Shown here in pieces: positions 16,646 to 41,562 of a DNA stretch of 64,000 nucleotides. Below the pieces are notes generated by a model. The model was not told where the DNA came from and did no database searches. It worked only from the letters and a program-made list of their open reading frames with translations. How positions within the stretch are numbered: position 1 is the first letter of the stretch; every line of letters starts with the position of its first letter. Made by a program: the position numbers and the translations under genes. Origin of the DNA: Candidatus Shapirobacteria bacterium CG_4_10_14_0_8_um_filter_39_15 (GTDB lineage: Bacteria; Patescibacteriota; Microgenomatia; UM-FILTER-39-15). The stretch lies in contig PFLE01000013.1 of the NCBI GenBank assembly GCA_002784465.1, positions 10,972 through 74,971 of the forward strand. The letters run 5' to 3'.

Positions 16646-16654
16646 ACAATTTAG

Positions 16655-16733
16655 GATATCAGTTGATCAGAATATCGGGACAAGAAATCTGAGAGCAGAA
16701 AACAGAAAATTTAACTGATATTCTGATTTACTA
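16655..16733. repeat. Family A palindromic repeat, copy R2 (yidD-yidC intergenic)
   Basis: ATCAGTTGATCAGAATATCGGGACAAGAAATCTGAGAGCAGAAAACAG...CTGATATTCTGATTTACT aligns with R1 and R4. Confidence 0.55.
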
Positions 16734-17463: not shown

Positions 17464-17585
17464 AGTAAATCAGTAGATCAGAAAAATCAGGTTAAGCAAA
17501 ACAGAGAATAGCAAACAGTTTAGATATTTCTGATGTTCTGATCTCAGATTTCTTATCCCGATATACTGATTAACTGATAATCTAC
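17464..17585. repeat. Family A palindromic repeat, copy R3, in the rpmH-dnaA intergenic (origin) region
   Basis: AGTAAATCAGTAGATCAGAAAAATCAGGTTAAGCAAAACAGAGA...CTGATCTCAG...ATATACTGATTAACTGAT. Its left terminus equals the reverse complement of the right terminus of R1 and R4. Confidence 0.55.
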
Positions 17586-17618
17586 AAAATTCGATATTCG
17601 AATTTAGTCATTTTGGTT

Positions 17619-17679: not shown

Positions 17680-19017
17680 ATGGACAATAATAATCTTTGG
17701 CAGCGAGTTTTAGAAGAACTTCGACTTTCGGTTTCCAAGCCGTATTATCAAACTCTCTTTCTACAAACAACTTTGATATCTTTAGAAAACAACGTTGCCA
17801 CTGTTTCCTGTACCAATCCTTATGTTCAGGGGATGATTGAAAACCGCTATTACAGTCTTTTAAAAAGCATCTTAGACAGCCAAACCAAAAACAACAATAG
17901 CCTCGTCTTTGTTATCAAAACAATTACCAAACAAGAATCTAAGGAAATTGGGCCGCTTTTCGAAAAAGAAGCGGTTAGGAAACCGGTTTTTGATACTCAT
18001 ACCGGATTAAATCCAAAATACACCTTTTCCTCTTTTGTAGTCGGAAATTCCAATAATTTTGCCCATGCCGCCGCCCAAGCCATTATTCAAAATCCGGGCG
18101 GGGCTTATAATCCCTTTTTTATTTGGGGCGGGGTCGGGGTCGGGAAAACCCATTTAATGCAGGCAATCGGCCACGCAATTTTGGAAAAAAATTCTGATTT
18201 TAAAGTTCTGTATACTCCTTCGGAAAATTTTACCAACGAACTGGTTCAGGCTTTACAGGACAAAAATATTTCCGTTTTCAAGAAGAGATATCGATCGATT
18301 GATGTCTTTCTTGTTGATGACATTCAATTTATCTCCGGCAAAGAATATTCCCAGGAGGAATTCTTTCATACTTTTAATGCTTTATATATGGCCGGCAAAC
18401 AAATTGTTTTGACTTCCGACCGGCCGCCGTCAGAGATAACCAAAGTCGAGGAGCGGCTTATTAGCCGGTTTATGGGCGGATTGACCGTCGACATTCAAGC
18501 GCCGGATTATGAAACCAGATTGGCAATTCTCAAAGCCAAGCGTTTAGAAAAGAACTTAACGATTGACGATGCGGTGCTTGATATTATTGCCCAAAATATT
18601 TCTTCCAACACCCGCGAGCTGGAAGGCCTTTTGTCGCAACTGGTAACCCAAGCATCTTCTTCTCATACCGAATTAAATACCGATTTTGCCAAAAGTTTTT
18701 TTGGAATTCAAAAACAAAAAACAAGTAAAATCCTCCAGCCGAAAAATGTGATTGCCGCCGTCAGCCGTCAATTTCAAATAAAAACCAGCGACTTAACCGG
18801 AGTTTCCCGCCGGGCTGAATTCGTCTTCCCCAGACAAATTATTATGTATTTACTGCGGGACGAGTTAAAGATTCCTTTGGTCAAGATCGGGGAAATGCTT
18901 GGCGGCCGCGATCATACAACGATTATTCATGGCTCGGAGAAAATTCGTCAACTTTTCAACAATGATGCGTCAATAAAACAGCAAATCATGTTGATTAAAC
19001 AGACTTTATCTGAATAA
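17680..19017 (+). CDS. dnaA: Chromosomal replication initiator DnaA
   Basis: Walker A GGVGVGKTHLMQAIGH, sensor and box VII regions, and a C-terminal DNA-binding domain (VSRRAEFVFPRQIIMYL). Confidence 0.95.
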   Translation: MDNNNLWQRVLEELRLSVSKPYYQTLFLQTTLISLENNVATVSCTNPYVQGMIENRYYSLLKSILDSQTKNNNSLVFVIKTITKQESKEIGPLFEKEAVRKPVFDTHTGLNPKYTFSSFVVGNSNNFAHAAAQAIIQNPGGAYNPFFIWGGVGVGKTHLMQAIGHAILEKNSDFKVLYTPSENFTNELVQALQDKNISVFKKRYRSIDVFLVDDIQFISGKEYSQEEFFHTFNALYMAGKQIVLTSDRPPSEITKVEERLISRFMGGLTVDIQAPDYETRLAILKAKRLEKNLTIDDAVLDIIAQNISSNTRELEGLLSQLVTQASSSHTELNTDFAKSFFGIQKQKTSKILQPKNVIAAVSRQFQIKTSDLTGVSRRAEFVFPRQIIMYLLRDELKIPLVKIGEMLGGRDHTTIIHGSEKIRQLFNNDASIKQQIMLIKQTLSE

Positions 19018-19266: not shown

Positions 19267-20406
19267 ATGAAACTTGTAATTCTTCAAGAAGATTTGAATA
19301 AAGCTTTAGTCACTGTTTCTCGTTCCGTTTCCAGTAAATCTTCTTTACCGATATTAGCCAATATTTTATTGGAAACAGAAGAAGGACGTCTTAAACTTTC
19401 CGCCACCAATTTAGAAGTCGGAATCAATTATTGGCTAGGTGTAAAAATTGACAATGAAGGTTCGATCACTATTCCTGCGAGGATAGTAAACGAGCTGATT
19501 GCTTCTTTACCGGCAGCAAAGATTGAGCTGGAAACCAAAGAATCAACTCTTTTTCTTTCAACCAACAATTTTAAAATCAACGTTGCCGGTTTGGATTCGG
19601 CCGAATTTCCCAAAGTACCGTTTTTTCCGAAAAATCCTTTGGCAGTTTTTGGCAAGGAAGATTTAATCAAAGGTTTAAGTCAGGTGGTGATTGCGGCGGC
19701 TCAAGACGAAGGCCGGCCGGTTTTGACGGGTGTTTTATTTACTTCTCGAATTGAAGGATTAACCATGGTGGCAACCGACGGGTACCGATTGTCTTTAAAA
19801 AAGATAAGCGCTCAAGAAATCGATAAATCTGTAGAAAAGCTGATCATCCCCGGAAAGACATTACAGGAAGTCGTGAGAATCGCCCAGGAAACCGCGGACA
19901 ACAAAGGAGGGAGTATCACCATCAAACTAGGATTGACAACGGAAAAAAGCCAGGCGGTCTTTTCTTTTCCGAATATTGATTTCTCGACTCGATTAATAGA
20001 AGGCGAATTTCCTGATTATCAAAAAATAATTCCGCAATCGTCAACCACTAAAGTAATTTTCGGTAAAGAAGAATTTTTACGAGCCATCAAAACGGCCTCG
20101 ATTATTGCTCGGGAGCAGGCGAATATTGTCAAGCTGGTGATTGATCCGGTTGGCAGCAGCGGCAAGATGACAATTACGGCGGAAACGGCTCAAGTAGGGG
20201 CGAACGAATCGGAAATAGAAGCCAAAACCGAAGGAGAGAAACTGGAAATCGCTTTTAATTATCGTTTTTTGCTGGATTTCTTAAACGTGGTTGAAGGAGA
20301 TGAAATTATTTTTGAAGCGGGTGGACCTTTAGCCCCGGGAGTTTTCAAGCCAACCGGCGACGATTCCTTTCTTCATATTATCATGCCGGTGAGAATTCAG
20401 GGTTGA
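19267..20406 (+). CDS. dnaN: DNA polymerase III beta sliding clamp
   Basis: 379 aa, three-domain clamp with MKLVILQEDLNKAL start, immediately after dnaA. Confidence 0.95.
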   Translation: MKLVILQEDLNKALVTVSRSVSSKSSLPILANILLETEEGRLKLSATNLEVGINYWLGVKIDNEGSITIPARIVNELIASLPAAKIELETKESTLFLSTNNFKINVAGLDSAEFPKVPFFPKNPLAVFGKEDLIKGLSQVVIAAAQDEGRPVLTGVLFTSRIEGLTMVATDGYRLSLKKISAQEIDKSVEKLIIPGKTLQEVVRIAQETADNKGGSITIKLGLTTEKSQAVFSFPNIDFSTRLIEGEFPDYQKIIPQSSTTKVIFGKEEFLRAIKTASIIAREQANIVKLVIDPVGSSGKMTITAETAQVGANESEIEAKTEGEKLEIAFNYRFLLDFLNVVEGDEIIFEAGGPLAPGVFKPTGDDSFLHIIMPVRIQG

Positions 20407-21365
20407 TCTTCCGTCGCCGGGAGAATAAGAATTGCTTGTATTGATTCTCCCGTCTGGTAAAAGAGATTTCCCCTAAAGACAAAAAACGGTCGATATTCTT
20501 GCTGATTTTTTACTCCGATAAAATATGCAAGTGAAACATCGTCAACCGTAATGCTTTTAATAATATTCATCAGCGGTGGTGAGAATTGTTCGCCCTGGGA
20601 ATTTATGGTTATGAAAAATTCTCCTTGCCCCTGCTCCAATTCTTCAATTACTTTATCGGAAGTTTTGAGGGGAATATCTGTTTTTTTTGTTTCATCAGGT
20701 TCAAAAAGATAAGAAACTAAATTAATTAGTTGTCCGGAAGTATTAATCTGGGCTTCTGTTATATTTTCCTGAATACTTAAACTTTTTAAAGGATATCCAT
20801 TTATTTGCTGTTCAAAAGCAACTTTCCAAATTTGGGCGGAAGAGGAGTCGGCGACGGGCAACAATTCAAGACCAAAGGCAGAATAACCTTTAATTGTTGG
20901 TATCGAATCCTGGTCAACCAAACCCCATAAAGTCAATTTTTCTTGGACAAGTGCTTCAGCGTCTTGGTAAGCGATTTTTTTATTAGCCAAAGAATATTTT
21001 CCGGAAAAAACAATTTGGTTGATAGTGGAAATAAAATTAACCCGGCCTAAATATTTAGCCAATAAAGCTTTTTCGGCGGCGATTGATTTGATGGAAATTG
21101 GGAAAACGGAAAGAGTTTTTGGAAATTGCGCAAAATTATTTTGGTTGAGATTGATTGTCAAGTATTCTCCGCCGATCATCAGACCGAACTCTGAAATTGG
21201 TTTGTAGATCTTTGAGGGCTGGCTAGAAGTTGGTTTAGGTTGTTTGATTGGGGCAACGGGAGCAATTGGTTTGGCAAAAAATTTAATAAGCAAAAGAGCA
21301 ACCGCAATAATTGCTAAAAAAATAATAAACCAGCGTTTTTTTAAGAATTTTTTAAGATTTTTCAT
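20397..21365 (-). CDS. Membrane-anchored extracytoplasmic protein; candidate T4SS VirB8-like component (speculative)
   Basis: Probable start MKNLKKFLKKRWFIIFLAIIAVALLL (internal Met; the upstream part of the track ORF overlaps the preceding gene). N-terminal TM then about 280 aa soluble domain; co-operonic with VirB4-like genes. Confidence 0.35.
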   Translation of the reverse strand: MKNLKKFLKKRWFIIFLAIIAVALLLIKFFAKPIAPVAPIKQPKPTSSQPSKIYKPISEFGLMIGGEYLTINLNQNNFAQFPKTLSVFPISIKSIAAEKALLAKYLGRVNFISTINQIVFSGKYSLANKKIAYQDAEALVQEKLTLWGLVDQDSIPTIKGYSAFGLELLPVADSSSAQIWKVAFEQQINGYPLKSLSIQENITEAQINTSGQLINLVSYLFEPDETKKTDIPLKTSDKVIEELEQGQGEFFITINSQGEQFSPPLMNIIKSITVDDVSLAYFIGVKNQQEYRPFFVFRGNLFYQTGESIQAILILPATEDQP

Positions 21366-21369
21366 GAAT

Positions 21370-24363
21370 TTACGGTGCTGGATTTGTCGGACAGCCATTG
21401 GCAACATCTTTAAAAGTACAGGAATTGTCGCAATTTGATAAATAATCACAAGGTGCGGGGGTATGCTCGCCCTGGCTAAAACAACCAAGTTCGATACTGC
21501 CGCAATCGCTAAAGCCCAAATGCAAATGACAACCAGTTGAGTGACCGGTGGTGCCCATAAAACCAATAATTGCTCCCTTACTGACATGCTTACCTAATTC
21601 AGTGGCAATACTTTTAAGGTGTCCATAAAGAGAAAAAAGACCCCCACCATGGTCAATAATAATATAATTTCCATAAGCGCCAAGTTCTAGCTGGTTTTCA
21701 CTGTAAAATATTTTGTAAATCGTGCCGTCTGCTACGGCATGAATGAGGATATTTACATTACTATTGGTACAATTCGTTGGTCCCGGGATATCAATTCCGG
21801 TATGACAATTACATTCGGTTGGGCTAAAAGGATCGTTATGATTGCCAAAAGGGGAAGAACAGGTATGGGAATTGTCAACCGGCCAATAAAAAGGTAAGGG
21901 GGATGGAGGGGCAATGGTTGGAAATTGGGCCGGGCAGCTGGACGAAGAGCCAGTCCAGGGAAATTGCATTCCGCCGCCGTTGGTGGGTAAAATAAAAGCA
22001 CCCGAGGCAATCATTATAATTATAAAAGCCAAAAAGCCAATTGAGCCGGCGCCGACGGCCACCCCGGCGGCAATCGGAGCGCCCGCAACAGAACCGGTGG
22101 TAATGGCAGAAATTAGCGAGGCGGCGCCTGAAGCCATTCCTGAAGCGGCCCCGCCCAGAGAAACTCCTAACCCCGGAGCCATTGCGGCCAAAGACCCGGC
22201 GCCCAAGGCCAAAAGACCTCCGCCCAAGAGAGCCGGTCCGCCCATGACCAGCGTTCCCAATCCGCCCAACATCATTCCTCCGGCAACTAAAGCTCCAGCA
22301 AGCTTTGGCCCCAGGTCTTTAAATTTCTTTTTGATAAAAGAAATAGCATCGGGGATAAAACCAACGACAAAACCAATAGCCGTTCCAACTCCTGGGGCAA
22401 CAGCAGTACCGACCGCTGCCGCACCAGCCGCAGTAGCAATCTTGCTAGCAACTTGTACTCCTAATTTTTTAGCCACTGCCGCGCTGATACCTTTGCCCAG
22501 CTTGCTTTTACTTAAGGCGGAAATAACCCGGCCGAAAGATTTTTGATAGATTGCTGTTTGAATTGAACCGAAGGAAGCGAATCTTCCGCCGGAAAGAAAA
22601 GTAACAAACCTTGTTTCTAAAGAAATTCGGAAAACAGCAATTCTGGGAGTTAAGAGTTGCGGAAGATAAATTCCCAATTCCTTGTCAAAAATTCTCGCCT
22701 TTTTCGTAAGTTGAGACAAGGAGTGATAGTGTTTCAATATTGTAACGACCGGTTTATCTCTGCCGTTTTCCTGCTGAACTTTTAATAATCGTTGGCCTTT
22801 TTCTTCTAATTTAACAATCGTTGGGTGAGTTTTTGGCATTCCCGCGCTCACTAAGACTTTGGCGCTTTCTAAATAGCGTTCACCAAATCTTCCCTCGGCA
22901 ATATCTTGCCATTCCGGAGTTTTGTTTTTGGTATTGATGATTGCGCCGGCAGCGGGAGTGGAGATAATGTGTTCCACTGTTGCCTTGAATCTTGCCATCG
23001 GGGAAACTCTTAACGGTTCTGTTCCGAGTTTAGTAAAGATTTCTTCAGGGAGAGGTTTCTCGATTCTTTCCAGCGCACTTATAATTTGGAGTTTTTGGGC
23101 GGTTTGTTCGACTTTTCCAACCAAGGTTTTGGTTTCGGCTGGTGTTAAACCTACTCCTTCATTTTCCATCGCTTGTTTGACGGCTTGGATGGCCGGGTCT
23201 TGTTCCCAACCTTTGGGTGAAAGAATTTGGGCGGTTAATACCTCGGTAGTTTTCTGACCTACTTTTTTAACAGTTTCTTTTGGAAGACCTTTTAATTTTG
23301 GTTCATCGCCAAAAACCATGGCCACGGTTTCTTCAAATTTTGCTTGTAAGGTTGGCAAGTCTTGAGGCATTTCCGGTTTGGCAACAACTTCTTGAATGTT
23401 TGGCAAAGTTTCAAAATATTTCTGAACCGTTTGGGCCGGAGATGAAGATTGGATTTGTTGAATTAAATCAGTCAATTGTTCTTTTTTCACAAAAACAACG
23501 CCGGCTTCTTGGAGGATTGTTTCAACGACACCTGACAAGGCTTGAGTTTTTTGAGGATTTGGTTCAGAATAATTACGAACAAAAGCCTCGGTAATTTTTT
23601 CCGTGGTTGGTAAAATTGTTGTTTCGGGAAGAGTTGGGTGTTGTTCAACAAGAATTTTTTGAATTTGTTCCTCTAAACCCGCTTTTATATCTGTTGGGAC
23701 TTGAGTTTTAGCCGCAGCGGCTTCTTTCGCCATTTCCGCCAGAGGAATTACCACCACTGGGGCAATCAAGGTTTGAATTTGTTTGGGTTCAAGACCGGTT
23801 TGTTGCTGTAAAATCGTCTTTAGATTTTCTTGTAAAATATTTGTCTTAACTCTTTCTTCTGGGGGAATGGCAATTTGTTGAGCGATTATTTGTTCAATAA
23901 ATGGATAAGCCGTAGCGGCTTGAGGAGTTTTTTCCAAAATCGAGGAAACTTTTTCTCGGATTTCTTTTGGAAGAATTGGTTCAGGAGTCACGGTTGGAAC
24001 CGGGGGTTCATAAACAACCTTTTCTGGAGGTTTTGCTTGAGCGGCTCTTTTTTCAAATTCTTTTTGAGCTTGGGATGCGTTTTGTTGGGTTTGCTGAACC
24101 TTTTCTCTGGCGGCGTCCATTTCCAGGGCCGCATTTTCCAAAATTTCCAAGGGCGGAAGACGGGAATCGTTAACCTCATCGTTATAGATTTTTTGAAGCA
24201 GATTGACGATTGTCAGAAGATTGTCGTCGTCGCGAATGCCATATTCTTTCAAAATCAGCCGGGTGTTGTGCAAAAAAAGAGCTCTCGGTTTTTCCGGACT
24301 GTCGATTAAATCCTGGCCTTCGGTAAGCAGGTCATAAATGTAGGGAAGATATTCGCTTCTCAT
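21370..24363 (-). CDS. Large membrane protein with C-terminal M23 (LytM-type) peptidase domain; candidate T4SS cell-wall hydrolase (PrgK/TcpG/VirB1 analogue)
   Basis: C-terminal HTGIDIPGP...YGNYIIIDHGGGLFSLYGHL...GTTGHSTGCHLH are the M23 motifs. A central Gly/Ala-rich hydrophobic block (about aa 600-760) gives multiple TM segments. The N-terminal 600 aa are helical, Q/E/K-rich and repetitive. Confidence 0.65.
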   Translation of the reverse strand: MRSEYLPYIYDLLTEGQDLIDSPEKPRALFLHNTRLILKEYGIRDDDNLLTIVNLLQKIYNDEVNDSRLPPLEILENAALEMDAAREKVQQTQQNASQAQKEFEKRAAQAKPPEKVVYEPPVPTVTPEPILPKEIREKVSSILEKTPQAATAYPFIEQIIAQQIAIPPEERVKTNILQENLKTILQQQTGLEPKQIQTLIAPVVVIPLAEMAKEAAAAKTQVPTDIKAGLEEQIQKILVEQHPTLPETTILPTTEKITEAFVRNYSEPNPQKTQALSGVVETILQEAGVVFVKKEQLTDLIQQIQSSSPAQTVQKYFETLPNIQEVVAKPEMPQDLPTLQAKFEETVAMVFGDEPKLKGLPKETVKKVGQKTTEVLTAQILSPKGWEQDPAIQAVKQAMENEGVGLTPAETKTLVGKVEQTAQKLQIISALERIEKPLPEEIFTKLGTEPLRVSPMARFKATVEHIISTPAAGAIINTKNKTPEWQDIAEGRFGERYLESAKVLVSAGMPKTHPTIVKLEEKGQRLLKVQQENGRDKPVVTILKHYHSLSQLTKKARIFDKELGIYLPQLLTPRIAVFRISLETRFVTFLSGGRFASFGSIQTAIYQKSFGRVISALSKSKLGKGISAAVAKKLGVQVASKIATAAGAAAVGTAVAPGVGTAIGFVVGFIPDAISFIKKKFKDLGPKLAGALVAGGMMLGGLGTLVMGGPALLGGGLLALGAGSLAAMAPGLGVSLGGAASGMASGAASLISAITTGSVAGAPIAAGVAVGAGSIGFLAFIIIMIASGAFILPTNGGGMQFPWTGSSSSCPAQFPTIAPPSPLPFYWPVDNSHTCSSPFGNHNDPFSPTECNCHTGIDIPGPTNCTNSNVNILIHAVADGTIYKIFYSENQLELGAYGNYIIIDHGGGLFSLYGHLKSIATELGKHVSKGAIIGFMGTTGHSTGCHLHLGFSDCGSIELGCFSQGEHTPAPCDYLSNCDNSCTFKDVANGCPTNPAP

Positions 24364-26180
24364 GTCGTTTTACCCAGCGCTTCTTGCTTTTGCCGCATTA
24401 ATTCTTCAGGCCGGGTGGTAATTAGAAGATGTTCTTCAGGAGAAGCCAAAACACGAATGCGAACGTGATTGGCGCCGGCAAAAAATAACCCTTCACCGAC
24501 GTTGGCAGCCAGTAAAAGATTTTTTTCTCCTTCGGAAAGGTAAAAGACTTTGGCAATTTGGTCAATGGCGGCCGGCGACTGCTTCATTAAAATCTGAATT
24601 GACGAGTTGGTGACAATCGCTTTTCCATAATCAGTGCTCAAAAAATCCTCCACGTCTTGGGTAATCGTGGTCAGCCCCAGCCAGTATTTCCGGGCTCTTT
24701 TGGCAATTGAGTAAATAAAATTGGCCGAATCCGGAAACTTCATCAGATACCAGGCCTCGTCAATAATCAAAATCCGGCGCTTCATATCCCGCTTAACCCG
24801 GGTCCAAATATAATCAAGAATGATAAACATCGCAATCGGTCGGAGAGCCTCCTCGAGACCTTTTAAAGAAAAAACCGTAAAAGCGTTTTTAATGTCAACG
24901 GTTGATCTTTGGTCAAAAATTCCCACAAACGAACCTTTAACGAATTTTTCAATTCGGTCAGCCAGGCCTTTGGCGTCCGTTTCTTCCATGCCGATTAAAA
25001 CTTTATAAAGATCTTCCATTAACGGCGGTTCGTTTTTTTGAGTGGCTGGTTCCGGGGTAATCCCCTTCAGTTTATAAGTCAAAATTAATGCCCGATCTAA
25101 GAGCGCTTCTTCCGAGGGAGTGAGATTGCCCATAATAACTTTAAAAAGCGAATGCAGGGAAAGAATTTTTAAACCCAATTCGTTTTCGTCCTTTTCATAA
25201 ACTTGCGATAAGTCAAAAGGATTTATTTTTGTTCCTGAATTAAAGGAAAACTCAATAAACTCACCGCCGATCGCCGCGGCCAAAGTCTTATATTCGGCCT
25301 CCGGATCAACGACGATGACTTCGGTACCGAACATGAGAGAACGAAGGGCTTCGAGTTTGACCAAATAACTTTTGCCTGCGCCTGACTTAGCAAATATCAC
25401 CGAGTTCGCGTTCTCCATGGTAAACCGGTCAAAAATAATTAAACTTCCGTTATGAAGATTAATGCCATACATAATTCCTTCATTGGCGGTTAGTTCCGAG
25501 GAAGTAAAAGGAAAAGTGGTGGCTAAGCTAGTGGTATCCATATTTCTGGTGATCATCAGCCGGTCAACGCAAAGCGGCAAAGTGGTTTTAAAGCCGTCTT
25601 CCATTTGTAAAGTCGTATTTTTGGAAACAATCAACAAAGAACCAAGGGTCGATTGCACTTGTTTGGTAACTCGGTCCAACTCTTCCAGTGAGTCGGCCGG
25701 GATCGTAATATAAAGCCCGAATTGGAAAAAGCGCTCAATGCCTTTGACCAACTGTTCCTGCAAAGCCCGGGCATCTTCCAGTTTGGCGGCCGTGCTCGGA
25801 TTAATCACCCGGCCTCCTTGGATATCTAAAGAAATTTCCGCTTCCATTTCGGCAATTTTTCGGCGCAAATCGTCTAAAACCGTTTTCCCCTCCACCGGAT
25901 AAATAAACATGGAAATATTTAAAGAATGATCAAAACTGATTAAGGGCGATAGCCAATTAGCGGCCACAAACCGCGGATAGCCGGCGACAAAAAGCGTTCG
26001 GAAATAAGAGTTGTTAATTTTAATATAATTAAAGTCAACTTCAATTGCCGACGGGGCAATAATATCTTTAACCGACAGCATTCCCTCGGCCAATTTCATA
26101 TCTGCCTCGGAACTTGCGGTTGTGCTTTCAGTTCCGGGTTCCGGGTCCTTAGTTTTACTAAAAGGCAATTTAAAATTCAT
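24360..26180 (-). CDS. VirB4/TrbE/TraE-family T4SS ATPase (C-terminal ATPase portion)
   Basis: Walker A FAKSGAGKSY, Walker B ILIIDEAWYLM, plus conserved VirB4 motifs (DPEAEY, TQ...DF). It is 606 aa, shorter than typical ~800-aa VirB4. Confidence 0.8.
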   Translation of the reverse strand: MNFKLPFSKTKDPEPGTESTTASSEADMKLAEGMLSVKDIIAPSAIEVDFNYIKINNSYFRTLFVAGYPRFVAANWLSPLISFDHSLNISMFIYPVEGKTVLDDLRRKIAEMEAEISLDIQGGRVINPSTAAKLEDARALQEQLVKGIERFFQFGLYITIPADSLEELDRVTKQVQSTLGSLLIVSKNTTLQMEDGFKTTLPLCVDRLMITRNMDTTSLATTFPFTSSELTANEGIMYGINLHNGSLIIFDRFTMENANSVIFAKSGAGKSYLVKLEALRSLMFGTEVIVVDPEAEYKTLAAAIGGEFIEFSFNSGTKINPFDLSQVYEKDENELGLKILSLHSLFKVIMGNLTPSEEALLDRALILTYKLKGITPEPATQKNEPPLMEDLYKVLIGMEETDAKGLADRIEKFVKGSFVGIFDQRSTVDIKNAFTVFSLKGLEEALRPIAMFIILDYIWTRVKRDMKRRILIIDEAWYLMKFPDSANFIYSIAKRARKYWLGLTTITQDVEDFLSTDYGKAIVTNSSIQILMKQSPAAIDQIAKVFYLSEGEKNLLLAANVGEGLFFAGANHVRIRVLASPEEHLLITTRPEELMRQKQEALGKTT

Positions 26181-26863
26181 TTTTTCTCCTGTTCAACCAT
26201 GCCGGCCGCATATTCTTTACCGGTGGTTAATTTTTGCCCGCCGGCCGATTCGGGATTATAAATATCATAAAAAAGCTGAATGGCCTCCTGGGTTTTGATT
26301 TCCCTGATTTTTAACCCTAAACGGCCAAACTGGCGGACAATATGATCCCTTTTTGGTAACAAATTCATTTTGGCTTTTTCCAGAACATATTCTTTGGCAT
26401 AGGGCAGATTTCTGGGTTTTTTGACCAAGGCGGTTAAGTTTTGACTGACACCCAATTCCATTGAGGAAAAAGGAATAATAATATAAAAAGTTTTATCCAA
26501 AACATTATTCTTTTTAACCGTTTCTTCGACAAACCGCCGGTATTTGCGCATTTGATCCTGTAAAAGGGAATTGGTTTGTTTTTGGATTTCCCGATCAAGT
26601 AAAGTAAGATATTGAGTGACGTCTTTTTGGCGGGAGCGGATGACCAGCTGAATCGGAAAGGTTAACGAGTTGAGCAATTCAGCATAAGCATAAATCGTTG
26701 CATCCTGCTCTCTTTCGGAAAGTAAGCCGAAATTAATGGCCGTGGTGGATAAAATCAAACAGCACGAACCATCTTTAAGGATTACAACGTTGTCAACCAC
26801 GTCTTCAATGTTCAGATGGTCTTGGGTGGTGCCGCGAATTGGAATGGATAATGGGTCGGGCAT
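26177..26863 (-). CDS. Probable N-terminal domain of a split VirB4 (overlaps the downstream ATPase ORF by 4 nt, ATGA)
   Basis: 228 aa + 606 aa = VirB4 full size. ATGA overlap indicates translational coupling. No separate family recognised for this ORF. Confidence 0.45.
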   Translation of the reverse strand: MPDPLSIPIRGTTQDHLNIEDVVDNVVILKDGSCCLILSTTAINFGLLSEREQDATIYAYAELLNSLTFPIQLVIRSRQKDVTQYLTLLDREIQKQTNSLLQDQMRKYRRFVEETVKKNNVLDKTFYIIIPFSSMELGVSQNLTALVKKPRNLPYAKEYVLEKAKMNLLPKRDHIVRQFGRLGLKIREIKTQEAIQLFYDIYNPESAGGQKLTTGKEYAAGMVEQEKK

Positions 26864-26872
26864 AATATTTGA

Positions 26873-26996
26873 ATAAGTAGATTATCAGTTAATCAGAATA
26901 TCAGGAAAAGAAATCTGAGAGCAGAAACCAGTAAAATTAACCGATTAACTGATCTCTGTTTTACTTTACCTGATTTTCCGATCTACTGATTTACTA
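26873..26996. repeat. Family A palindromic repeat, copy R4 (intergenic inside the T4SS operon)
   Basis: ATTATCAGTTAATCAGAATATCAGGAAAAGAAATCTGAGAGCAGAAACCAG...CTCTGTTTTACTTTACCTGATTTTCCGATCTACTGATTTACT is about 75% identical to R1. Confidence 0.6.
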
Positions 26997-27962
26997 TTAT
27001 TTCGCTTTAATTTCAATCGGTTCTACAATCTCTCCTTTTAATTCTACTCTTACATTATCAAACGCGTAACCATCTTTTTCCAAAAGAATGTCATAAAAAC
27101 CATTGGCCAATTGAGTCGCGGTACGGAATTGACCGATTTTATTGGTCCGTAGGGCCCGAACCGGATTGGCGCCTTGATCCAAAATTTCCAGGATGACATT
27201 TTCCAAAATCCGGCCGTTTTTATCCGTTACCATACCAGCCAAAATATTAGGAATTGTTGGCGCCGACGGCATCGGTATTTCCGAAGAATACCGGGCCGGC
27301 TGCGCTTGAATCGGTTGGCGGAAAGTCGATGGCGGCGGAATATAAGGAATATGCGGGGGAGTGTATTTGGGAATATGAACCGGTTGAATATTTGGCTGCT
27401 GAACTTCTAAAACAAACGGGCCGCTTAATTTGTGAACCTGCACATTTCCAGGATTTGGGATCTCGTTGGTAACCCGGGTAACCGGCGGAGTGGTCATTGA
27501 AAACATATTTTTAATTTGATTTACAAATTCGTCTTCTTTTTGGTCAATGGCGCTTTTTGCGACCGGCAAGGTGGCAACATATTCGATCATTTTAATTTTG
27601 TCTTGAGGAGTGACCACTTGTTGAGCCGGTTCGACTGGAAGTGGCGGCCGTTCTTCTAAAAATTCCGGTTTTTTGGGCGTTTTTTTCCAAAGATACTGGG
27701 TGGGTGAATAAATAGTTTTCAAAAAAGACATAAGCCAGGTTTCTAAAGGTCGTTCTTCAATCGGGAAAAAAGCCAGGCCAACGCCTAAGACCGCCGAAAC
27801 AAAAACCAATGGCCATTTGAAATACCAGGCTAAACCGGAAGCGTAAAAAATTAACGCTACCACCAAACCGCCGGCTAATTCCAGAAATTGTTTTAAGGTC
27901 ATATCACCGACCAGGCGAAATTCATAGCTTGCAATATTTTGCGGGACTGGGTGTTGCTCCAT
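26997..27962 (-). CDS. Membrane protein with two N-terminal TM helices and Pro-rich C-terminal region; possible VirB3-like T4SS component
   Basis: LKQFLELAGGLVVALIFYASGLAWYF...LVFVSAVLGVGLAFF. Position directly upstream of the VirB4 ORFs as in Gram-positive-type T4SS (PrgI/VirB3-like). Confidence 0.35.
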   Translation of the reverse strand: MEQHPVPQNIASYEFRLVGDMTLKQFLELAGGLVVALIFYASGLAWYFKWPLVFVSAVLGVGLAFFPIEERPLETWLMSFLKTIYSPTQYLWKKTPKKPEFLEERPPLPVEPAQQVVTPQDKIKMIEYVATLPVAKSAIDQKEDEFVNQIKNMFSMTTPPVTRVTNEIPNPGNVQVHKLSGPFVLEVQQPNIQPVHIPKYTPPHIPYIPPPSTFRQPIQAQPARYSSEIPMPSAPTIPNILAGMVTDKNGRILENVILEILDQGANPVRALRTNKIGQFRTATQLANGFYDILLEKDGYAFDNVRVELKGEIVEPIEIKAK

Positions 27963-28009: not shown

Positions 28010-28375
28010 CTAAGACGTATTTTTCATTAAGGTTGTTAATATTTTAATAAGCTCTTCGTTCGTATCCTTAAATTTTTTAATTATTTGCTCGTCAAATTTA
28101 TTCGTTTCTAAAATAATTTCTAGCCAATAATCAGCTTCAAAACTGGAACCGCGAGCAATTCCTAAAAATTGATGATAACTTTTCGAATAATGTCTTCCAT
28201 AACCTTCAGCGATATTGGCGCCGATTGAAGAAACCGCTCTTATTAATTGTTTTATTAAGATTTCAGAAACTCGGTCCAACTTGGCATTGGCAAAATAGTT
28301 TATAACATCAATTGTTAAGGTTTTTGCCTTTTGATAGACGATTAGATTTTTATGGGAACTGGGCGGGTTTTCCAT
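28010..28375 (-). CDS. Four-helix-bundle protein (23S rRNA intervening-sequence protein / DGR Avd superfamily, PF05635-like), copy 1
   Basis: From the internal Met: MENPPSSHKNLIVYQKAKTL...AVSSIGANIAEGYGRHYSKSYHQFLGIARGSSFEADYWLEI matches the family pattern (WQKA...IxxNIAEGxxR...FLxIAxGSxxE). Confidence 0.7.
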   Translation of the reverse strand: MENPPSSHKNLIVYQKAKTLTIDVINYFANAKLDRVSEILIKQLIRAVSSIGANIAEGYGRHYSKSYHQFLGIARGSSFEADYWLEIILETNKFDEQIIKKFKDTNEELIKILTTLMKNTS

Positions 28376-28509
28376 TCTTTCTATGCACTTTGTGCTATGC
28401 ACTATGTTACTATCCATCGAGATTGGATTCAACTGCTTCAGACCCGATCACATTACAAACAAAATATGGCAAGTGGAAACAACTTGGTTGTTTGTGGTAA
28501 AATTAGGTT

Positions 28510-28932
28510 ATGGTTACCCGAGAACAAAAGGAAAAAATCTTTGCTTTGGGGAAAAAATACAATCTGGATTTTATTATCCTCTATGGTTCTGTGGCTAGAA
28601 ATCAGGCAGGAAAGCTTTCGGATTTAGATATTGCGGTTTATAAAAAAGGAGGGATTACTTCGGAAAAATATTTTGAACTTTACGGGAAAATGTTTGGGAT
28701 TTTTGAAAGTAAAGAAGTTGATTTAAAGACACTTAACGATCAGAGTATTTTATACCGGTATTTGGTGGTTCGCGACGGAATTTTGTTATTCGGAAATGAA
28801 TTGGAATATTTAAAATTTAAAACTTATATAATCCGTGATTATCAGGACAGCAAAGATCTTTTTGATTTGGCTGGATCTCTTGTTAGACGTCACCAGAAAG
28901 AATTGGAAGAAAGGTTAAATGTTAAATACTGA
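28510..28932 (+). CDS. Minimal nucleotidyltransferase (MntA-like antitoxin)
   Basis: LYGSVARNQAGKLSDLDIAV is the GS-x10-DxD NTase motif. Overlaps the downstream HEPN gene (ATGTTAAATACTGA). Confidence 0.75.
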   Translation: MVTREQKEKIFALGKKYNLDFIILYGSVARNQAGKLSDLDIAVYKKGGITSEKYFELYGKMFGIFESKEVDLKTLNDQSILYRYLVVRDGILLFGNELEYLKFKTYIIRDYQDSKDLFDLAGSLVRRHQKELEERLNVKY

Positions 28933-29353
28933 ATTTATCTACCAAAAAATTGCTTTAATCCGCCAAGATCTGGAATTTTTGGACAAAATGGCAAATTTGA
29001 GTTTTGAGGAAGTGGCTAAGGACTTCTATAAATACAATACCGTTCAAATGTTATTAATGAAAATCATTGGTCGAGCCATTGATATTAACGAACACCTTAT
29101 TGACGAATTGGCCAACGCAGAAACGAAATCGCCTGGGACTTATCGGGAAACTTTTTTACAACTGGCAGACTTGAAAATTTTACCGGCTGATTTTGCTTCT
29201 GAAATTGCCAAAAGCGCCGGATTCCGAAATGCAATTGTTCATGAATATGACAAATTAGACGATTTTATTATTTATAAAACAATCGGCGAGGCGGTAGTCC
29301 AATATACTAAATATTGCCATTATGTTTTAGATCTTATCTCCAGAAAGTCTTAA
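28919..29353 (+). CDS. HEPN-domain protein (HepT/DUF86-like toxin)
   Basis: R-x4-H-x-Y motif FRNAIVHEY near the C-terminus; overlapping pair with the preceding MNT. Confidence 0.75.
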   Translation: MLNTEFIYQKIALIRQDLEFLDKMANLSFEEVAKDFYKYNTVQMLLMKIIGRAIDINEHLIDELANAETKSPGTYRETFLQLADLKILPADFASEIAKSAGFRNAIVHEYDKLDDFIIYKTIGEAVVQYTKYCHYVLDLISRKS

Positions 29354-29425
29354 TTTTTCCAACCATCTTTAACTCTCGTCTTGTAGACAGGACAAGAATA
29401 TGATAAAATTGTTCCAAATGCAATT

Positions 29426-30703
29426 TTGAGGACTCTTTTATACGAATGGAAGGAAAGAAAATTACCCTTGGCCATAGAGCGCGATATTCATTTGGATATT
29501 TCCCGGCCGCCGGAAATTAAGAACGCCATGGTGATAACCGGTTTTCGGCGCGTAGGAAAGACCTATCTGCTTTATGAGACGATAGAAAAACTTTTAGAAA
29601 CTTATCCTCGTGAACAAGTGGTTTATCTTAATTTTGAGGATGAGCGGATAATCTCGCCCGCCACCGACCTTTTGACTGATCTCCTGCCGGAAATACAAGC
29701 GGTTTATGGTCAAAAACCTAAGTATTTATTTTTAGACGAACTGCAATTGATTCCCAATTGGTCAAAATGGGTACGCCGGATTCTTGATACGGAAACAGTC
29801 CAGATATTTATTACCGGTTCCTCCTCAAAAATGAGCAGTGCGGAATTACCGACTGAACTTCGAGGTCGGGCTTGGGAAACAAAAGTCGAGCCCCTTACTT
29901 TCAAAGAATTTTTGCGCTTTAAAAAAACTGCGATTGATAAGGAAAAGTTGACTTATGTAAAAGAAGAAGCGGCCCGTTTTTGTTTTCTTTTTGAGGAATA
30001 CATAACTTTTGGGGCATTGCCGGCCGTAGTCCTGACTCAATCCGAAAAAAAACAAGAGCTTTTACAGTCTTATTTTCAAACCGTGGTGCAAAGAGATATT
30101 GCCGAAAGATACAAAATAGACAACGACGTCGCCTTAAGAACCCTTTTGAAATTACTTCTTAATTCCAGTTATATCACCATATCCAAACTCACCAAGAACA
30201 TAAAAAGTCTGGGGATTCCCATTGGTAAATCAACCATTGACAGCTATCTCTCGTATATTGAAACCTCATATTTCCTAAATGAACTATATATTCATAATCC
30301 GGCGGTTATAAACCAATTGCAGTATCCGCGAAAGGTTTATTTTGTGGATACTGGGTTTATGACCGCCCTGTCAACAAAGTTTTCCAAAAACATGGGACGG
30401 TTATTTGAAAATGTTGTTTATCATAAACTCGCTCAAAGCAAGGAAACAATGTATTACTATAAAGACAATAAGGGAAATGAAGTTGATTTTGCGATTTTAG
30501 GGGAGGACAAAACGACCGCTTTGTATCAGGTTTGTTTTGATTTGACAGACGAAGAAATTCTCAATCGTGAAGTTAAATCACTTTTAAAAGCGAAAGAAAC
30601 GCTTAAATGCCAAAACCTTAATCTATTGTATCTTGAAAAAACAGAAACTTTTAAATTGCCTAAAGAAATTAAGCTTCTTTCCGCCCCGGAATTTTTCTTA
30701 TAA
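29426..30703 (+). CDS. AAA+ ATPase with C-terminal DUF4143 (COG1373 family), paralog 1
   Basis: Walker A ITGFRRVGKTYLL, Walker B LFLDELQ, restriction-endonuclease-like C-terminal region. Confidence 0.75.
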   Translation: MRTLLYEWKERKLPLAIERDIHLDISRPPEIKNAMVITGFRRVGKTYLLYETIEKLLETYPREQVVYLNFEDERIISPATDLLTDLLPEIQAVYGQKPKYLFLDELQLIPNWSKWVRRILDTETVQIFITGSSSKMSSAELPTELRGRAWETKVEPLTFKEFLRFKKTAIDKEKLTYVKEEAARFCFLFEEYITFGALPAVVLTQSEKKQELLQSYFQTVVQRDIAERYKIDNDVALRTLLKLLLNSSYITISKLTKNIKSLGIPIGKSTIDSYLSYIETSYFLNELYIHNPAVINQLQYPRKVYFVDTGFMTALSTKFSKNMGRLFENVVYHKLAQSKETMYYYKDNKGNEVDFAILGEDKTTALYQVCFDLTDEEILNREVKSLLKAKETLKCQNLNLLYLEKTETFKLPKEIKLLSAPEFFL

Positions 30704-30714
30704 ACTCAGTATAT

Positions 30715-30776
30715 TAAGTATTGTGGGTATATTTTGGATTTCATCTCAAAAAAGAATTAATTTTTCTTTACTACCA
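30715..30776. repeat. Conserved ~55-bp 3' element, copy 1 (also at 32060-32111)
   Basis: agtattgtgggtatattttggatttcatctcaaaaaagaattaatttttc versus aatattgcgggtatgttttagatttcatctcaaaaaagaattaatttttc. Confidence 0.6.
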
Positions 30777-30844
30777 GGCGAGCTTGGTAATTAGATAAAA
30801 AGGACTTGACAAATACAAATTATCAGATATAATGGATTTAGTAA

Positions 30845-32059
30845 ATGACAATTATCCGAGATTTAACCCTAAAGATAAATCATTACCTTCGATCGGAAGA
30901 GATTATTCTTATTATTGGAGCTAGACAATCGGGAAAAACGACGGTTCTTCATCAGTTGGAAGGATTCTTGCGTGAAGCAAAAGAGGTTTCCTTTTTTTTG
31001 AATCTAGAGGATTCAGAATATCTAACACTTTTGAACCAATCGCCAAAAAATATTTTTCAAATTTTTCCATTTGATCTAACCCAAAAAAACTTTCTTTTTG
31101 TTGACGAAATTCAATATTTGGATAATCCCTCAAACTTTTTAAAGTATTTATACGATGAATATGCGGGGAAAATTAAGATTATTGCTTCTGGTTCTTCGGC
31201 TTTTTATTTGGATAAAAAATTTAAAGAATCTTTGGCCGGGAGAAAAAGAATTTTTCAGTTATACACGCTTTCGTTTAAAGAATTTTTAAGATTTAAAGAC
31301 GAAACTCCGCTGGCCGAGAAGGATTTTATCGGATTAACTCTTTCGGAAAAGGAAAAAATAAGCCTTTACTATCAAGAATATGTGGTTTATGGAGGATATC
31401 CTAAGGTTGTTTTAGCGCCAAAAGAGGAAAAAGAAAATTTATTAAGTGATTTGGCCTACTCCTATATTAAGAAAGATATTTTCGAGTCGGGAATTAGGCA
31501 AGATGAAGTATTTTACCGGCTTTTTAAAATTTTAGCCTCGCAGACCGGAAACTTGGTCAATACCGCAGAATTAGCGGCAACCTTAGGAGTTTCTAAAACC
31601 GCGATTGATAATTATCTTTACACGATGCAAAAATCTTTTCATTTAGCTTTAATCCGGCCGTTTTTCCAAAACATCCGCAAGGAATTAACCAAAATGCCCA
31701 AAGTTTATTTTTTGGATTTGGGATTAAGAAACTTTTTTTGCAGCAATTTTAACCTTTTTGAAACACGGGATGATAAAGGACCGCTTTTGGAAAATGCCGT
31801 TTTTCGGCAGCTATTGGAAAAATATCCTTTGGAAGAGATTAAGTTTTGGCGGACAACGGCGAAACAAGAGGTTGATTTTATCGCTGGCGAAAACTCCGCT
31901 TTTGAGGTTAAATCGCAGGCAAAAAATGTCAGGCGGAAAGACTATCAAACCTTTTTAGAAAATTATCCAAAAATTAAGCTTTCCCTGGCTGTTTTTCAGG
32001 AAACAGAAAAAAAATCTAGCCCATTTCCCGTATATGAGGTTTGGCAGCTGCCAATTTAG
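30845..32059 (+). CDS. AAA+ ATPase with DUF4143 (COG1373 family), paralog 2
   Basis: IIGARQSGKTTVL, FLFVDEIQ; same architecture as paralogs 1 and 3; TTGACA-17-TATAAT promoter at 30808-30836. Confidence 0.75.
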   Translation: MTIIRDLTLKINHYLRSEEIILIIGARQSGKTTVLHQLEGFLREAKEVSFFLNLEDSEYLTLLNQSPKNIFQIFPFDLTQKNFLFVDEIQYLDNPSNFLKYLYDEYAGKIKIIASGSSAFYLDKKFKESLAGRKRIFQLYTLSFKEFLRFKDETPLAEKDFIGLTLSEKEKISLYYQEYVVYGGYPKVVLAPKEEKENLLSDLAYSYIKKDIFESGIRQDEVFYRLFKILASQTGNLVNTAELAATLGVSKTAIDNYLYTMQKSFHLALIRPFFQNIRKELTKMPKVYFLDLGLRNFFCSNFNLFETRDDKGPLLENAVFRQLLEKYPLEEIKFWRTTAKQEVDFIAGENSAFEVKSQAKNVRRKDYQTFLENYPKIKLSLAVFQETEKKSSPFPVYEVWQLPI

Positions 32060-32111
32060 TAAATATTGCGGGTATGTTTTAGATTTCATCTCAAAAAAGA
32101 ATTAATTTTTC
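32060..32111. repeat. Conserved 3' element, copy 2
   Basis: See copy 1; 30-bp core gatttcatctcaaaaaagaattaatttttc is identical. Confidence 0.6.
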
Positions 32112-35664: not shown

Positions 35665-36249
35665 ATGATTAACAACGACTTTATTTTACAACTTTATTAT
35701 CGGCCGGAAACGGTTTTCACTATTAATGAGATTGCCCAACTCTACCCTGACGTTTCTTACGAGAGTGTGCGTGACCGCCTATATTATTTTGCTAAAACCG
35801 GGAAATTGAAACGGCCTCACCAGGGGATTTATGCGAAAAACGACTACCATCCTTTTGAATTGGCCAATAAACTTTATAAACCGTCATATATCAGTTTGGA
35901 AACTGTCCTGGCAAAACAAGGCGTGGTCTTTCAGTCTTACAAAACAATTTTTGTTGTTTCCTATTTGACAAGAACAATAACCATAAACGAGACAGAAATC
36001 CAGTATCGGCAAATTAAAGGAGAAATCTTGACCAATACTGAAGGAATTGATCAGAAAGATGGTTATTTTACGGCTACCCGCGAGCGGGCGTTTTTAGACG
36101 CAATTTATATCTATAAAAATTATCATTTTGACAATTTAGGGGCAATTGATTGGAACGAAGTTGAAGCCCTTAAAAAAATCTATAAAAGCAAAATCTTTGA
36201 AAAAAGAGTTGGGGAGTATTATCAATTATCCAAGGAGGAACATGGTTAA
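35665..36249 (+). CDS. AbiEi-like antitoxin / transcriptional regulator (type IV TA, abortive infection)
   Basis: 194 aa, N-terminal wHTH-like; overlaps the AbiEii start by 8 nt; typical AbiEi-AbiEii gene order. Confidence 0.6.
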   Translation: MINNDFILQLYYRPETVFTINEIAQLYPDVSYESVRDRLYYFAKTGKLKRPHQGIYAKNDYHPFELANKLYKPSYISLETVLAKQGVVFQSYKTIFVVSYLTRTITINETEIQYRQIKGEILTNTEGIDQKDGYFTATRERAFLDAIYIYKNYHFDNLGAIDWNEVEALKKIYKSKIFEKRVGEYYQLSKEEHG

Positions 36250-41535: not shown

Positions 41536-41562
41536 TTTCTCACCTCCTTTCGAACTACTTAT

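Follow-up and report, generated by a model that had tools for sequence, protein, structure and literature searches.

Core genes of a chromosomal secretion system

We analysed a stretch of 64,000 nucleotides (nt), referred to here as the window, from contig PFLE01000013.1 (positions 10,972–74,971 of the forward strand) of Candidatus Shapirobacteria bacterium CG_4_10_14_0_8_um_filter_39_15, a member of the Microgenomatia within the Patescibacteria; all positions below are those of the window. Its minus strand carries a block of five genes (20397–27962) that the list of open reading frames (ORFs) and domain searches identify as the core of a type IV secretion system (T4SS). All five ORFs that an earlier note had described from the letters of this DNA are present. 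The genes converge on dnaA (17680–19017) and dnaN (19267–20406), and dnaN and the last core gene share 10 nt at their 3′ ends. We consider it highly probable that the region is a chromosomal T4SS core operon of the Patescibacteria type in a Microgenomatia genome, with a protein of 997 amino acids (aa) as its wall-opening subunit, and that its function is probably not conjugative.

The first gene (26997–27962, minus strand) encodes a PrgI/VirB3-like membrane protein of 321 aa. It had been put forward, with a question mark, as a VirB3-like protein with two transmembrane (TM) helices, and this call is borne out by a Pfam PrgI match above the cutoff (aa 5–88, E = 8.8 × 10−7, 29.8 bits, cutoff 27); hydropathy gives a single hydrophobic stretch of 50 residues, which we read as a hairpin of two TM helices. 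The C-terminal part consists of a proline-rich linker followed by a β-sandwich resembling CarboxypepD_reg (aa 241–304, E = 1.2 × 10−5, below the cutoff). The predicted extracytoplasmic extension of the window protein is about 230 aa long; ORFs that contain PrgI reach about 800 aa in some relatives (seven loci), and PrgI has 300 aa in Southlakia and about 117 aa in its classical form from pCF10. The prgI gene sits two genes upstream of virB4. The five genes are consecutive, as had been described, with the correction that prgI is set off from the next gene, trsD, by a 133-nt spacer (26864–26996, minus strand) bearing one copy of a repeated element that is treated below.

The second gene (26177–26863, minus strand) encodes a TrsD-like protein of 228 aa with a remote likeness to the N-terminal domain of VirB4 (N-terminal region of NCBIfam VirB4_plasma, E = 7.8 × 10−8; TrsD, E = 7.8 × 10−5; both below the curated cutoffs) and a precomputed Pfam match to PF26593 (TraC-like). 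Behind it lies a VirB4 ATPase of the short form (606 aa; 24360–26180, minus strand), which matches NCBIfam conju_CD1110 (E = 1.4 × 10−120, 403.9 bits, cutoff 325) over model positions 180–732 of 752, lacking the N-terminal quarter of the model. It also matches Pfam P-loop_TraG (E = 6.8 × 10−28), and its Walker A (AKSGAGKS) and Walker B (ILIIDE) motifs are intact. Overlaps of 4 nt join the trsD-like gene to virB4 and virB4 to the gene for the 997-aa protein, and possibly reflect translational coupling. Among the 72 related loci that have trsD, 65 have it directly beside virB4, and here the two genes overlap; the split is thus a conserved arrangement of two genes rather than a frameshift, and ‘split VirB4’ is a fair description of it. 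The nearest VirB4 relatives outside the Patescibacteria are those of conjugative plasmids of Bacillota and Actinomycetota (30–39% identity). With the PrgI/VirB3-like and split VirB4 calls standing, the core is of the Gram-positive style that had been claimed for it; that is, monoderm-type and related to MPF_FATA.

Conservation was assessed in 80 species-representative loci with a VirB4 66–82% identical to that of the window, in which neighbours were sought by BLASTP within 10 kb. Informatively named genomes among them belong to Patescibacteria of the Microgenomates group (Shapiro-, Woese-, Gottesman-, Beckwith- and Chisholmbacteria). Besides VirB4 (80 loci), homologues were found for the TrsD-like protein (72) and for PrgI (70, usually encoded immediately upstream of trsD), as well as for dnaN (63) and dnaA (62). 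The presence of dnaN at most 10 kb away in 63 of the 80 species-level genomes answers the question, raised with the original description, of whether the system is chromosomally fixed in relatives: it is. Median identity across the related loci falls from VirB4 (70%) to TrsD (53%) and PrgI (39%), and the 997-aa protein can be aligned in only 12 of them, at about 25–30% identity; from these identities and the rarity of such alignments, we regard the distal two genes as fast-evolving. The window corresponds to ENA metagenome contig k141_137924, and genes for identical proteins are present on NCBI assembly GCA_002778865.1. Many of the metagenome-assembled genomes that serve as GTDB representatives and carry the locus are labelled ‘uncultured Gammaproteobacteria’, ‘Pseudomonadales’, ‘Nevskiaceae’ or ‘Nanoarchaeia’, labels that we take to be placeholders or mislabels given the VirB4 identity.

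A membrane-anchored M23 peptidase in a modular slot

The 997-aa protein (21370–24363, minus strand) is encoded directly after virB4 and has three parts. Residues 1–636 (22456–24363, minus strand) form a predicted cytoplasmic domain that is hydrophilic and in which neither a signal peptide nor a TM segment was found; an AlphaFold2 model makes it almost entirely helical, with predicted local distance difference test (pLDDT) values of 80–90 for aa 220–560. Earlier this part had been called a long helical repeat region. The helices are supported by the model, and internal repeats could be detected neither by BLASTP self-comparison nor by hhalign among four sub-segments. The domain has no Pfam, NCBIfam or PHROG match, and Foldseek matches of the protein are confined to its M23 part. 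Residues 637–800 (21964–22455, minus strand) make up the Gly/Ala-rich polytopic segment that had been described, which composition (22% Gly, 21% Ala) and hydropathy confirm: hydrophobic stretches at 649–677, 688–729 and 759–797 are read as about five TM helices. This region is conserved in homologues (E down to 9 × 10−35 with a hidden Markov model (HMM) of the region). An enrichment of glycine zippers in it was considered and rejected, as GxxxG motifs are no more numerous than in composition-matched shuffles; small-xxx-small motifs are mildly enriched.

The remaining part, predicted to be extracytoplasmic (aa 801–997; 21373–21963, minus strand), is rich in cysteine, with 12 such residues beyond position 810, and contains an M23 metallopeptidase domain (Pfam Peptidase_M23, PF01551; aa 854–951, window positions 21511–21804; E = 3.1 × 10−20, 72.6 bits, cutoff 28.7). 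The HxxxD and HxH motifs that had been noticed in the sequence are intact: H854-T-G-I-D858, H913 (in YGHL) and H946-L-H948 align with the active M23 structures 9m7n, 6muk and 3slu, and all metal and catalytic residues are retained. The M23 fold appears in the model as well, with Foldseek matches at a probability of 1.00 to LytM (2b13), lysostaphin (4qpb) and EnpA (6smk), for which the TM-scores normalised to the target are 0.77, 0.73 and 0.72 (range 0.70–0.77). We thus predict a catalytically intact domain and a putative endopeptidase. If the TM helices are odd in number and the N terminus is cytoplasmic, the protein would have an N-in/C-out topology that places the peptidase outside the cell. 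The best NCBIfam matches of the domain are M23/LytM proteins of the EnvC, NlpD, DipM, MepM and ShyA types.

Pfam, NCBIfam and PHROG searches detected M23 alone in this protein, with no SLT/muramidase, CHAP or NlpC-P60 domain. The earlier remark that the apparatus uses M23 rather than the usual domains therefore holds for the window; as a novelty it is not upheld, since M23-type heads, although uncommon in conjugative systems of the classical kind, have precedents (see the comparison below). A phmmer search over 1.84 billion representatives returned 10 proteins at E ≤ 1 × 10−30, the best of them, other than the protein itself, being 44% identical; this exhaustive search was used instead of a word-indexed one, which had returned the query alone (the Gly/Ala-rich region is suspected). 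The long helices, the Gly/Ala-rich hydrophobic segment and the C-terminal M23 domain had also led us to consider a phage tape-measure or ejection protein as a relative; this was rejected, as matches among PHROG, PDB sequences and Foldseek targets were to M23 only.

In related loci, the place of this gene is kept while the C-terminal domain of its product changes. A Pfam survey of the gene after virB4 in 20 related loci where it encodes at least 678 aa found M23 in 7, CHAP in 5 (plus 1 weak case), a weak SLT_3 match in 2, no detectable domain in 4 and an unrelated gene in 1. The phmmer relatives, recognized through the shared pre-TM and TM-bundle region, likewise include proteins ending in M23 (nine) and in CHAP (one). 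Among all 80 loci, local HMMs identified a protein of 700–1,400 aa ending in M23 or CHAP in 27, either directly after virB4 or 3–6 kb upstream; elsewhere in the Microgenomatia, the upstream protein of the same cluster has 950–1,100 aa. Judged by these sequences, the slot after virB4 is that of a modular wall hydrolase, in which a shared cytoplasmic and membrane scaffold bears M23, CHAP or SLT-like heads. One scaffold with interchangeable hydrolase heads in a fixed place of a T4SS operon argues most strongly for the 997-aa protein being a VirB1-like, wall-opening subunit. This agrees with its earlier designation as the peptidoglycan hydrolase of the apparatus, and its position is that of PrgK in pCF10 and of the SLT/NlpC-P60 hydrolase of a Clostridium perfringens plasmid. 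In one Microgenomatia clade (seven loci), the gene in this position encodes 466–514 aa with a single terminal TM helix and no ectodomain, and dnaN comes directly after it; its product may represent the scaffold without its hydrolase, or may be unrelated.

Partner genes appear to vary with the hydrolase head

The last gene of the block, which takes the place of prgL, encodes a membrane-anchored protein of an orphan family. Taken as its longest ORF (20397–21587, 396 aa), it would share about 218 nt with the 3′ end of the gene for the 997-aa protein. All homologues begin with M-K/N-K and have their TM segment at residues ~5–37; the nearest one in the database measures 320 aa. Because the homologue starts and the TM position agree, the start is most likely the ATG at 21365, 4 nt past the upstream stop, which would give a bitopic protein of 322 aa (20397–21365, minus strand); the gene recorded earlier exists, with its start probably moved from 21587. 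The predicted protein has a TM helix at aa ~7–34, then a proline-rich linker and an α/β ectodomain (in a low-confidence model). Neither Pfam nor NCBIfam matches it, alone or across its family; a PDB-profile search matches the TM helix only, and hhalign against PrgL finds nothing. Homologue searches gave two and then five proteins, and because the resulting five-sequence alignment is shallow, the AlphaFold2 model is of low confidence (pLDDT 50.2) and its best Foldseek TM-score, below 0.27, carries no information. For the suggestion that this protein is VirB8-like, bitopic topology and the position of PrgL speak in favour, and HMMs, PDB profiles and fold comparison lend nothing.

The genes that follow the hydrolase in related loci form distinct families that have only an N-terminal TM helix in common. 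A long family (305–367 aa) accompanies M23 heads, a short family A (132–189 aa) accompanies CHAP or no detected head, family B (224–230 aa) accompanies CHAP and family C (138–252 aa) accompanies weak SLT_3 matches. M23 is paired with a long partner in 12 of 12 cases, found in the window itself, in seven loci from GTDB and on four contigs from metagenomes, and CHAP is paired with a partner of 132–230 aa in 7 of 7; the long family was found solely beside M23-type hydrolases. In a neighbour-joining tree of VirB4, calculated without bootstrap, M23/long pairs recur in at least 4 separate clades, and CHAP/short pairs are nested between these. As the tree has no bootstrap values and the cases are not all independent, the co-variation is merely suggestive. 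It is a modest new observation: hydrolase head type and partner family appear to change together. This would fit a direct contact between partner and hydrolase head, by analogy with that of PrgL with PrgK.

Comparison with known systems

Systems of this kind have been published (papers from 2023 to 2025), and the locus described here adds a member from the Microgenomatia. A survey by Quinonero-Coronel et al. (2025, PMC12102498) defined a Patescibacteria clade of VirB4 that is sister to MPF_FATA and is found with TrsD, PrgI and arrays of PF18895 pilins, with a distant type IV coupling protein (T4CP) and rare relaxases, and close to dnaA and dnaN in Microgenomatia. It also reported patescibacterial VirB1 homologues with M23 domains, and essential peptidase and lysozyme genes after virB4 in Southlakia. 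The window shares with this clade an MPF_FATA-related VirB4, the adjacent TrsD, PrgI, pilin arrays, the proximity of dnaA and dnaN and the lack of a relaxase match nearby. The two sets of counts differ in places: VirB3 was linked to virB4 in 22.6% of Microgenomatia in the survey, whereas we find PrgI within 10 kb in 70 of 80 loci; and VirB1 homologues were mostly unlinked, whereas a large hydrolase-bearing protein lies in or beside the cluster in 27 of our 80 loci.

A close counterpart is the T4SS locus of Southlakia epibionticum ML1 (SEML1_0004–0019; Wang et al. 2023, PMC10633639), which belongs to a class (Saccharimonadia) other than the Microgenomatia of the window; the comparison is one of gene order, sizes and annotation and not of direct sequence alignment. 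As in the window, there are dnaA and dnaN, a convergent operon and a pilin array, and there is no relaxase. The order within the operon is the same (SEML1_0004–0010): PrgI, also with an extended C terminus (300 aa, 321 aa in the window), SEML1_0009 (about 290 aa) in the position of TrsD, VirB4 (612 aa against 606) and then SEML1_0007 (1,113 aa), which has a C-terminal metallopeptidase domain of LAS type. By fold, this domain is a Hedgehog/DD-peptidase (M15-like) rather than a Pfam M23 domain; in AFDB, SEML1_0007 comes closest to M15B and M23 proteins. SEML1_0007 is followed by a separate lysozyme and CHAP-like protein (SEML1_0006) and by PEGA/prealbumin-like exported proteins, where the window has the 322-aa partner instead. 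The T4SS genes of Southlakia are essential by transposon sequencing (Tn-seq; PMC10633639), including those for PrgI, SEML1_0009, VirB4 and SEML1_0007.

Among classical conjugative systems, pCF10 of Enterococcus faecalis (MPF_FATA) has the same order, with prgI, prgJ (VirB4), prgK (a hydrolase, VirB1-like of class DELTA) and prgL. In PrgK, a cytoplasmic domain of 253 aa is followed by a single TM helix and by ectodomains of the LytM, muramidase and CHAP types. PrgK binds the VirB8-like PrgL, and its LytM domain is without HxxxD and HxH and is degenerate, inactive and regulatory (PMC11323569). Like PrgK, the 997-aa protein is predicted to combine a cytoplasmic domain at the N terminus with a membrane anchor and an extracellular hydrolase part that includes an M23/LytM fold. 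It differs in its about five TM helices, 636-aa cytoplasmic domain and single intact M23, the active domain of PrgK being the muramidase. The pCF10 system differs further in its full-length VirB4, in the relaxase and T4CP encoded in the operon and in having no pilins. A family profile of the 997-aa protein aligned with PrgK by hhalign at a probability of only 3%, and only M23 with LytM. On a C. perfringens plasmid, the genes for PrgI and a full-length VirB4 are followed, in the hydrolase slot, by that for an 850-aa protein with SLT and NlpC/P60 domains. The 322-aa partner resembles the monoderm VirB8-like proteins PrgL, TraM and TcpC (NTF2-like) in its position after the hydrolase, in its bitopic N-in topology and in its α/β ectodomain, which in the partner is a low-confidence model; it is unlike them in that no HMM, PDB-profile, hhalign or Foldseek similarity to them was found.

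The closest VirB4 outside the Patescibacteria for which an annotated neighbourhood is available lies on a megaplasmid of Pontibacillus sp. ALD_SL1 (NZ_CP062975.1), a member of the Bacillota. The cluster encodes two PF18895 pilins, a TrbL/VirB6-like protein, a PrgI/TraL-like protein, a TrsD-like protein that is 30% identical to that of the window (E = 3 × 10−30), a short VirB4 (621 aa, 37% identical) and a hydrolase of 1,050 aa with an NlpC/P60 and a C-terminal M23 domain, whose likeness to the 997-aa protein is limited to M23. In contrast to the window, there is no bitopic partner next on the same strand. The replicon is typed as non-mobilizable, and no relaxase is annotated in the stretch of ~20 kb inspected. 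The cluster (locus L089, 351–362 kb) lies beside flagellar genes. It bears on the origin of the Patescibacteria T4SS and pilins.

Pilins and candidate components elsewhere in the window

Six genes for VirB2-like pilins lie at 40748–43021 (minus strand), so that the pilin cluster proposed earlier is confirmed; all six match Pfam PF18895 (T4SS_pilin; E = 9.5 × 10−11 to 2.4 × 10−3), three of them above the gathering score. Beginning 5 nt downstream of the array is a gene (37446–40742, minus strand) for a 1,098-aa, putatively secreted protein that starts with a signal or TM segment and matches no family; identical protein sequences occur in several metagenomes, and the protein may serve as an adhesin or tip of the pilus. 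Two further PF18895 pilins (164 and 167 aa; precomputed Pfam) are encoded at 53759–54761 (minus strand). Divergent from this pair is a gene (54954–56711) for a 585-aa protein with a SpoIID/LytB domain (NCBIfam SpoIID_LytB, E = 4.2 × 10−27), a second wall-lytic function beside T4SS pilins, the N-terminal region of which weakly matches TraP and IcmG/DotF.

Other components of a complete apparatus are less clear. A polytopic membrane protein (33932–35515, minus strand; 527 aa, or 513 aa as called) with at least 5 hydrophobic segments had been named VirB6-like. This label is not sustained: the protein has no Pfam, NCBIfam, PHROG or PDB match, and it resembles the TrbL-like Pontibacillus protein only marginally (BLASTP, E = 0.011), which leaves it a candidate. 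The window edge cuts a gene (1–1438, minus strand) for the N-terminal 479 of 825 aa of a P-loop ATPase, a T4CP-like candidate. For its description as coupling-protein-like there are matches to Pfam TrwB_AAD_bind (E = 0.003), NCBIfam conju_CD1115 (E = 3.4 × 10−4) and TraD, every one of them far below its cutoff; the full-length protein from the same genome has a precomputed DUF8128 match and weak matches to TrwB_AAD_bind and TraG-D_C. In agreement with the earlier statement that the window has neither, no Pfam match to a relaxase or integrase was found for any called gene of the window or of the ~10 kb that precede it (~75 kb in all).

A repeated intergenic element and other features

The spacer between prgI and trsD carries one of five copies in the window of an intergenic element of ~120 nt, rich in CTGAT/ATCAG and with the core TCCYGATATTCTGATYAACTGATAATCTAC; none would be expected by chance. 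The copies (26877–26994, 16652–16727, 17536–17598, 3753–3868 and 54808–54929) each lie 7–96 nt upstream of a start codon, namely those of trsD, yidC, dnaA, a gene for a solute-binding protein and the pilin pair, and their orientation relative to the downstream gene is the same throughout. No copy was found in 88 loci of other genomes. Two identities were rejected: a structured RNA, as Rfam gave no match and no consensus structure was found, and a cluster of DnaA boxes, as the canonical TGTGGATAA box of the dnaA promoter stands outside the element. Scans for promoters and terminators gave counts not above those in shuffles. The element may be a lineage-specific promoter or operator, or a repeat resembling a miniature inverted-repeat transposable element. 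With a copy in the spacer, the genes from trsD to the partner, including virB4 and the hydrolase gene, may form a unit whose transcription or regulation is separate from that of prgI.

Three genes for four-helix-bundle proteins of PF05635 (23S rRNA intervening-sequence protein), one of which also matches bAvd, adjoin all three T4SS-related clusters: upstream of prgI (28010–28432, minus strand), after the pilin array and the 1,098-aa gene (37015–37251, minus strand) and beside the second pilin pair (53309–53668, plus strand). Such a gene is found upstream of prgI in another genome, too (locus L095, 1985–2395). No reverse transcriptase was found in the window. Genes resembling toxin–antitoxin and defence systems separate the T4SS core from the pilin array (28510–32111 and 36146–36946), comprising MNT/HepT (28510–29353), two AAA_14/DUF4143 ATPases within 28510–32111 and AbiEii (36146–36946). 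Further such genes lie at 48328–50617, with Fic/MerR (48328–49299) and a third AAA_14/DUF4143 ATPase (49370–50617). A 60-nt repeat occurs at, or just past, the 3′ ends of three consecutive genes (29300, 30707 and 32052). A transfer-messenger RNA gene with the tag GTSNYAANYAYC (region 60647–61192) is followed by two perfect direct repeats of 50 nt, 125 nt apart (61018–61067 and 61143–61192). Within a tsaD-like gene (3910–5154) there is a direct repeat of 114 nt (4113–4226 and 4380–4493; 85% identity), 267 nt apart.

Proposed function and alternatives

We propose that PrgI, the TrsD-like protein and the short VirB4 would form a membrane-associated ATPase motor, to which the helical cytoplasmic domain of the 997-aa protein may dock. 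Held in the membrane by its about five Gly/Ala-rich helices, with the helical domain inside and M23 outside, this wall-opening subunit would cut peptide cross-links of the peptidoglycan locally, so that the channel and a VirB2-like pilus could cross the cell's own wall. The 322-aa partner might position or restrain the hydrolase, as PrgL does towards PrgK in pCF10. The machine would serve contact-dependent export or attachment in an epibiotic lifestyle and probably not conjugation; the lack of a relaxase nearby and the genetics of Southlakia both point to a non-conjugative function.

Several observations weigh against this proposal. The 997-aa protein has no detectable homology to PrgK, TrsG or CD419-type VirB1 beyond the M23/LytM fold, and because the LytM domain of PrgK is catalytically dead (PMC11323569), it offers no precedent for an active M23 domain in a T4SS. 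Many related genomes have no large gene after virB4, or a form of ~480–514 aa without an ectodomain, so that the hydrolase is not universally kept there. No HMM assigns a VirB6 or a VirB8 equivalent, and the T4CP-like gene is distant and its matches sub-threshold. Our reading of the Microgenomatia system is drawn from genes and predicted structures, and the roles given to aa 1–636 and to the partner, neither of which has recognisable relatives or folds, are guesses.

Two alternatives would detach the hydrolase or the whole cluster from a working secretion system. The 997-aa protein might be a housekeeping enzyme of wall remodelling or division that merely neighbours T4SS genes near oriC, as the best NCBIfam matches of its domain (EnvC, NlpD, DipM, MepM and ShyA) and the surrounding dnaA, dnaN, rnpA and yidC genes could suggest. 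However, its gene shares 4 nt with virB4, the scaffold stays in place as the catalytic domain alternates between M23 and CHAP, other Microgenomatia encode an M23 or CHAP protein upstream within the same T4SS cluster, and the same slot holds a peptidoglycan hydrolase in the pCF10, C. perfringens and Pontibacillus clusters, away from any oriC; we regard such a role as very unlikely. That the cluster is the decaying remnant of an integrated conjugative element seems extremely improbable. Its closest non-Patescibacteria VirB4 proteins are indeed from conjugative plasmids of Bacillota and Actinomycetota, and its components are scattered among toxin–antitoxin and defence-like genes, but all ORFs are intact with their ATPase and peptidase motifs preserved, and the GC content is within the range of the window. 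The called genes in or near the window have no integrase or relaxase Pfam match, the same order stands beside dnaN and dnaA in more than 60 species-level genomes, with the VirB4 identity given above, and the equivalent Southlakia genes are essential.

Two further alternatives accept a working T4SS and differ on what it does. A true conjugation or DNA-transfer machine could work with the remote T4CP-like ATPase and with a relaxase that is encoded elsewhere and has escaped recognition: VirB4 is of the conjugative CD1110 family, the 825-aa ATPase lies ~25 kb away and the DNA inspected amounts to 64 kb of the genome plus flanks. Against this, there is no relaxase match in the ~75 kb inspected; relaxases were found in only 103 Patescibacteria genomes and rarely near virB4, and the T4CP homologue of Southlakia is not essential although its T4SS is (PMC12102498), so conjugation seems quite improbable. 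It is also unlikely, in our judgement, that the M23 domain is aimed at the wall of the host bacterium, for attack, feeding or attachment, rather than at that of the producer. Patescibacteria are epibionts, growth of Southlakia on its host requires the T4SS (PMC10633639), and a fast-evolving, swappable head with a cognate partner resembles toxin/immunity-like diversification; but M23 lies ~50 residues past a multi-helix anchor with no cleavage or secretion signal, which limits its reach to the producer's own envelope, and in T4SSs of plasmids the proteins of the homologous slots have the wall of the donor as their target (PMC11323569). Opening of the producer's own peptidoglycan by a non-conjugative T4SS, with the partner in a supporting role, is what we infer from these comparisons.

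Implications

The T4SS of Patescibacteria is the first on which the growth of the carrier bacterium has been shown to depend. The locus described here leaves the published overall picture unchanged, and the hydrolase architecture and the co-variation of head and partner are incremental additions to it. It offers a clean Microgenomatia example of the modular wall hydrolase, draws attention to an unannotated partner gene that tracks head type, gives targets for biochemistry (the M23 head and the partner ectodomain) and may help to build better HMMs for the VirB1, VirB3 and VirB8 equivalents of the phylum. We tentatively suggest that the head and the downstream bitopic partner are a two-part cassette that is swapped as a unit, the partner being a regulator, inhibitor or positioning factor specific to the domain; this is possible, although the odds are against it. 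If true, the partner could stand in functionally for the VirB8 that is not found in most Patescibacteria, and would represent a new family of proteins for hydrolase control.

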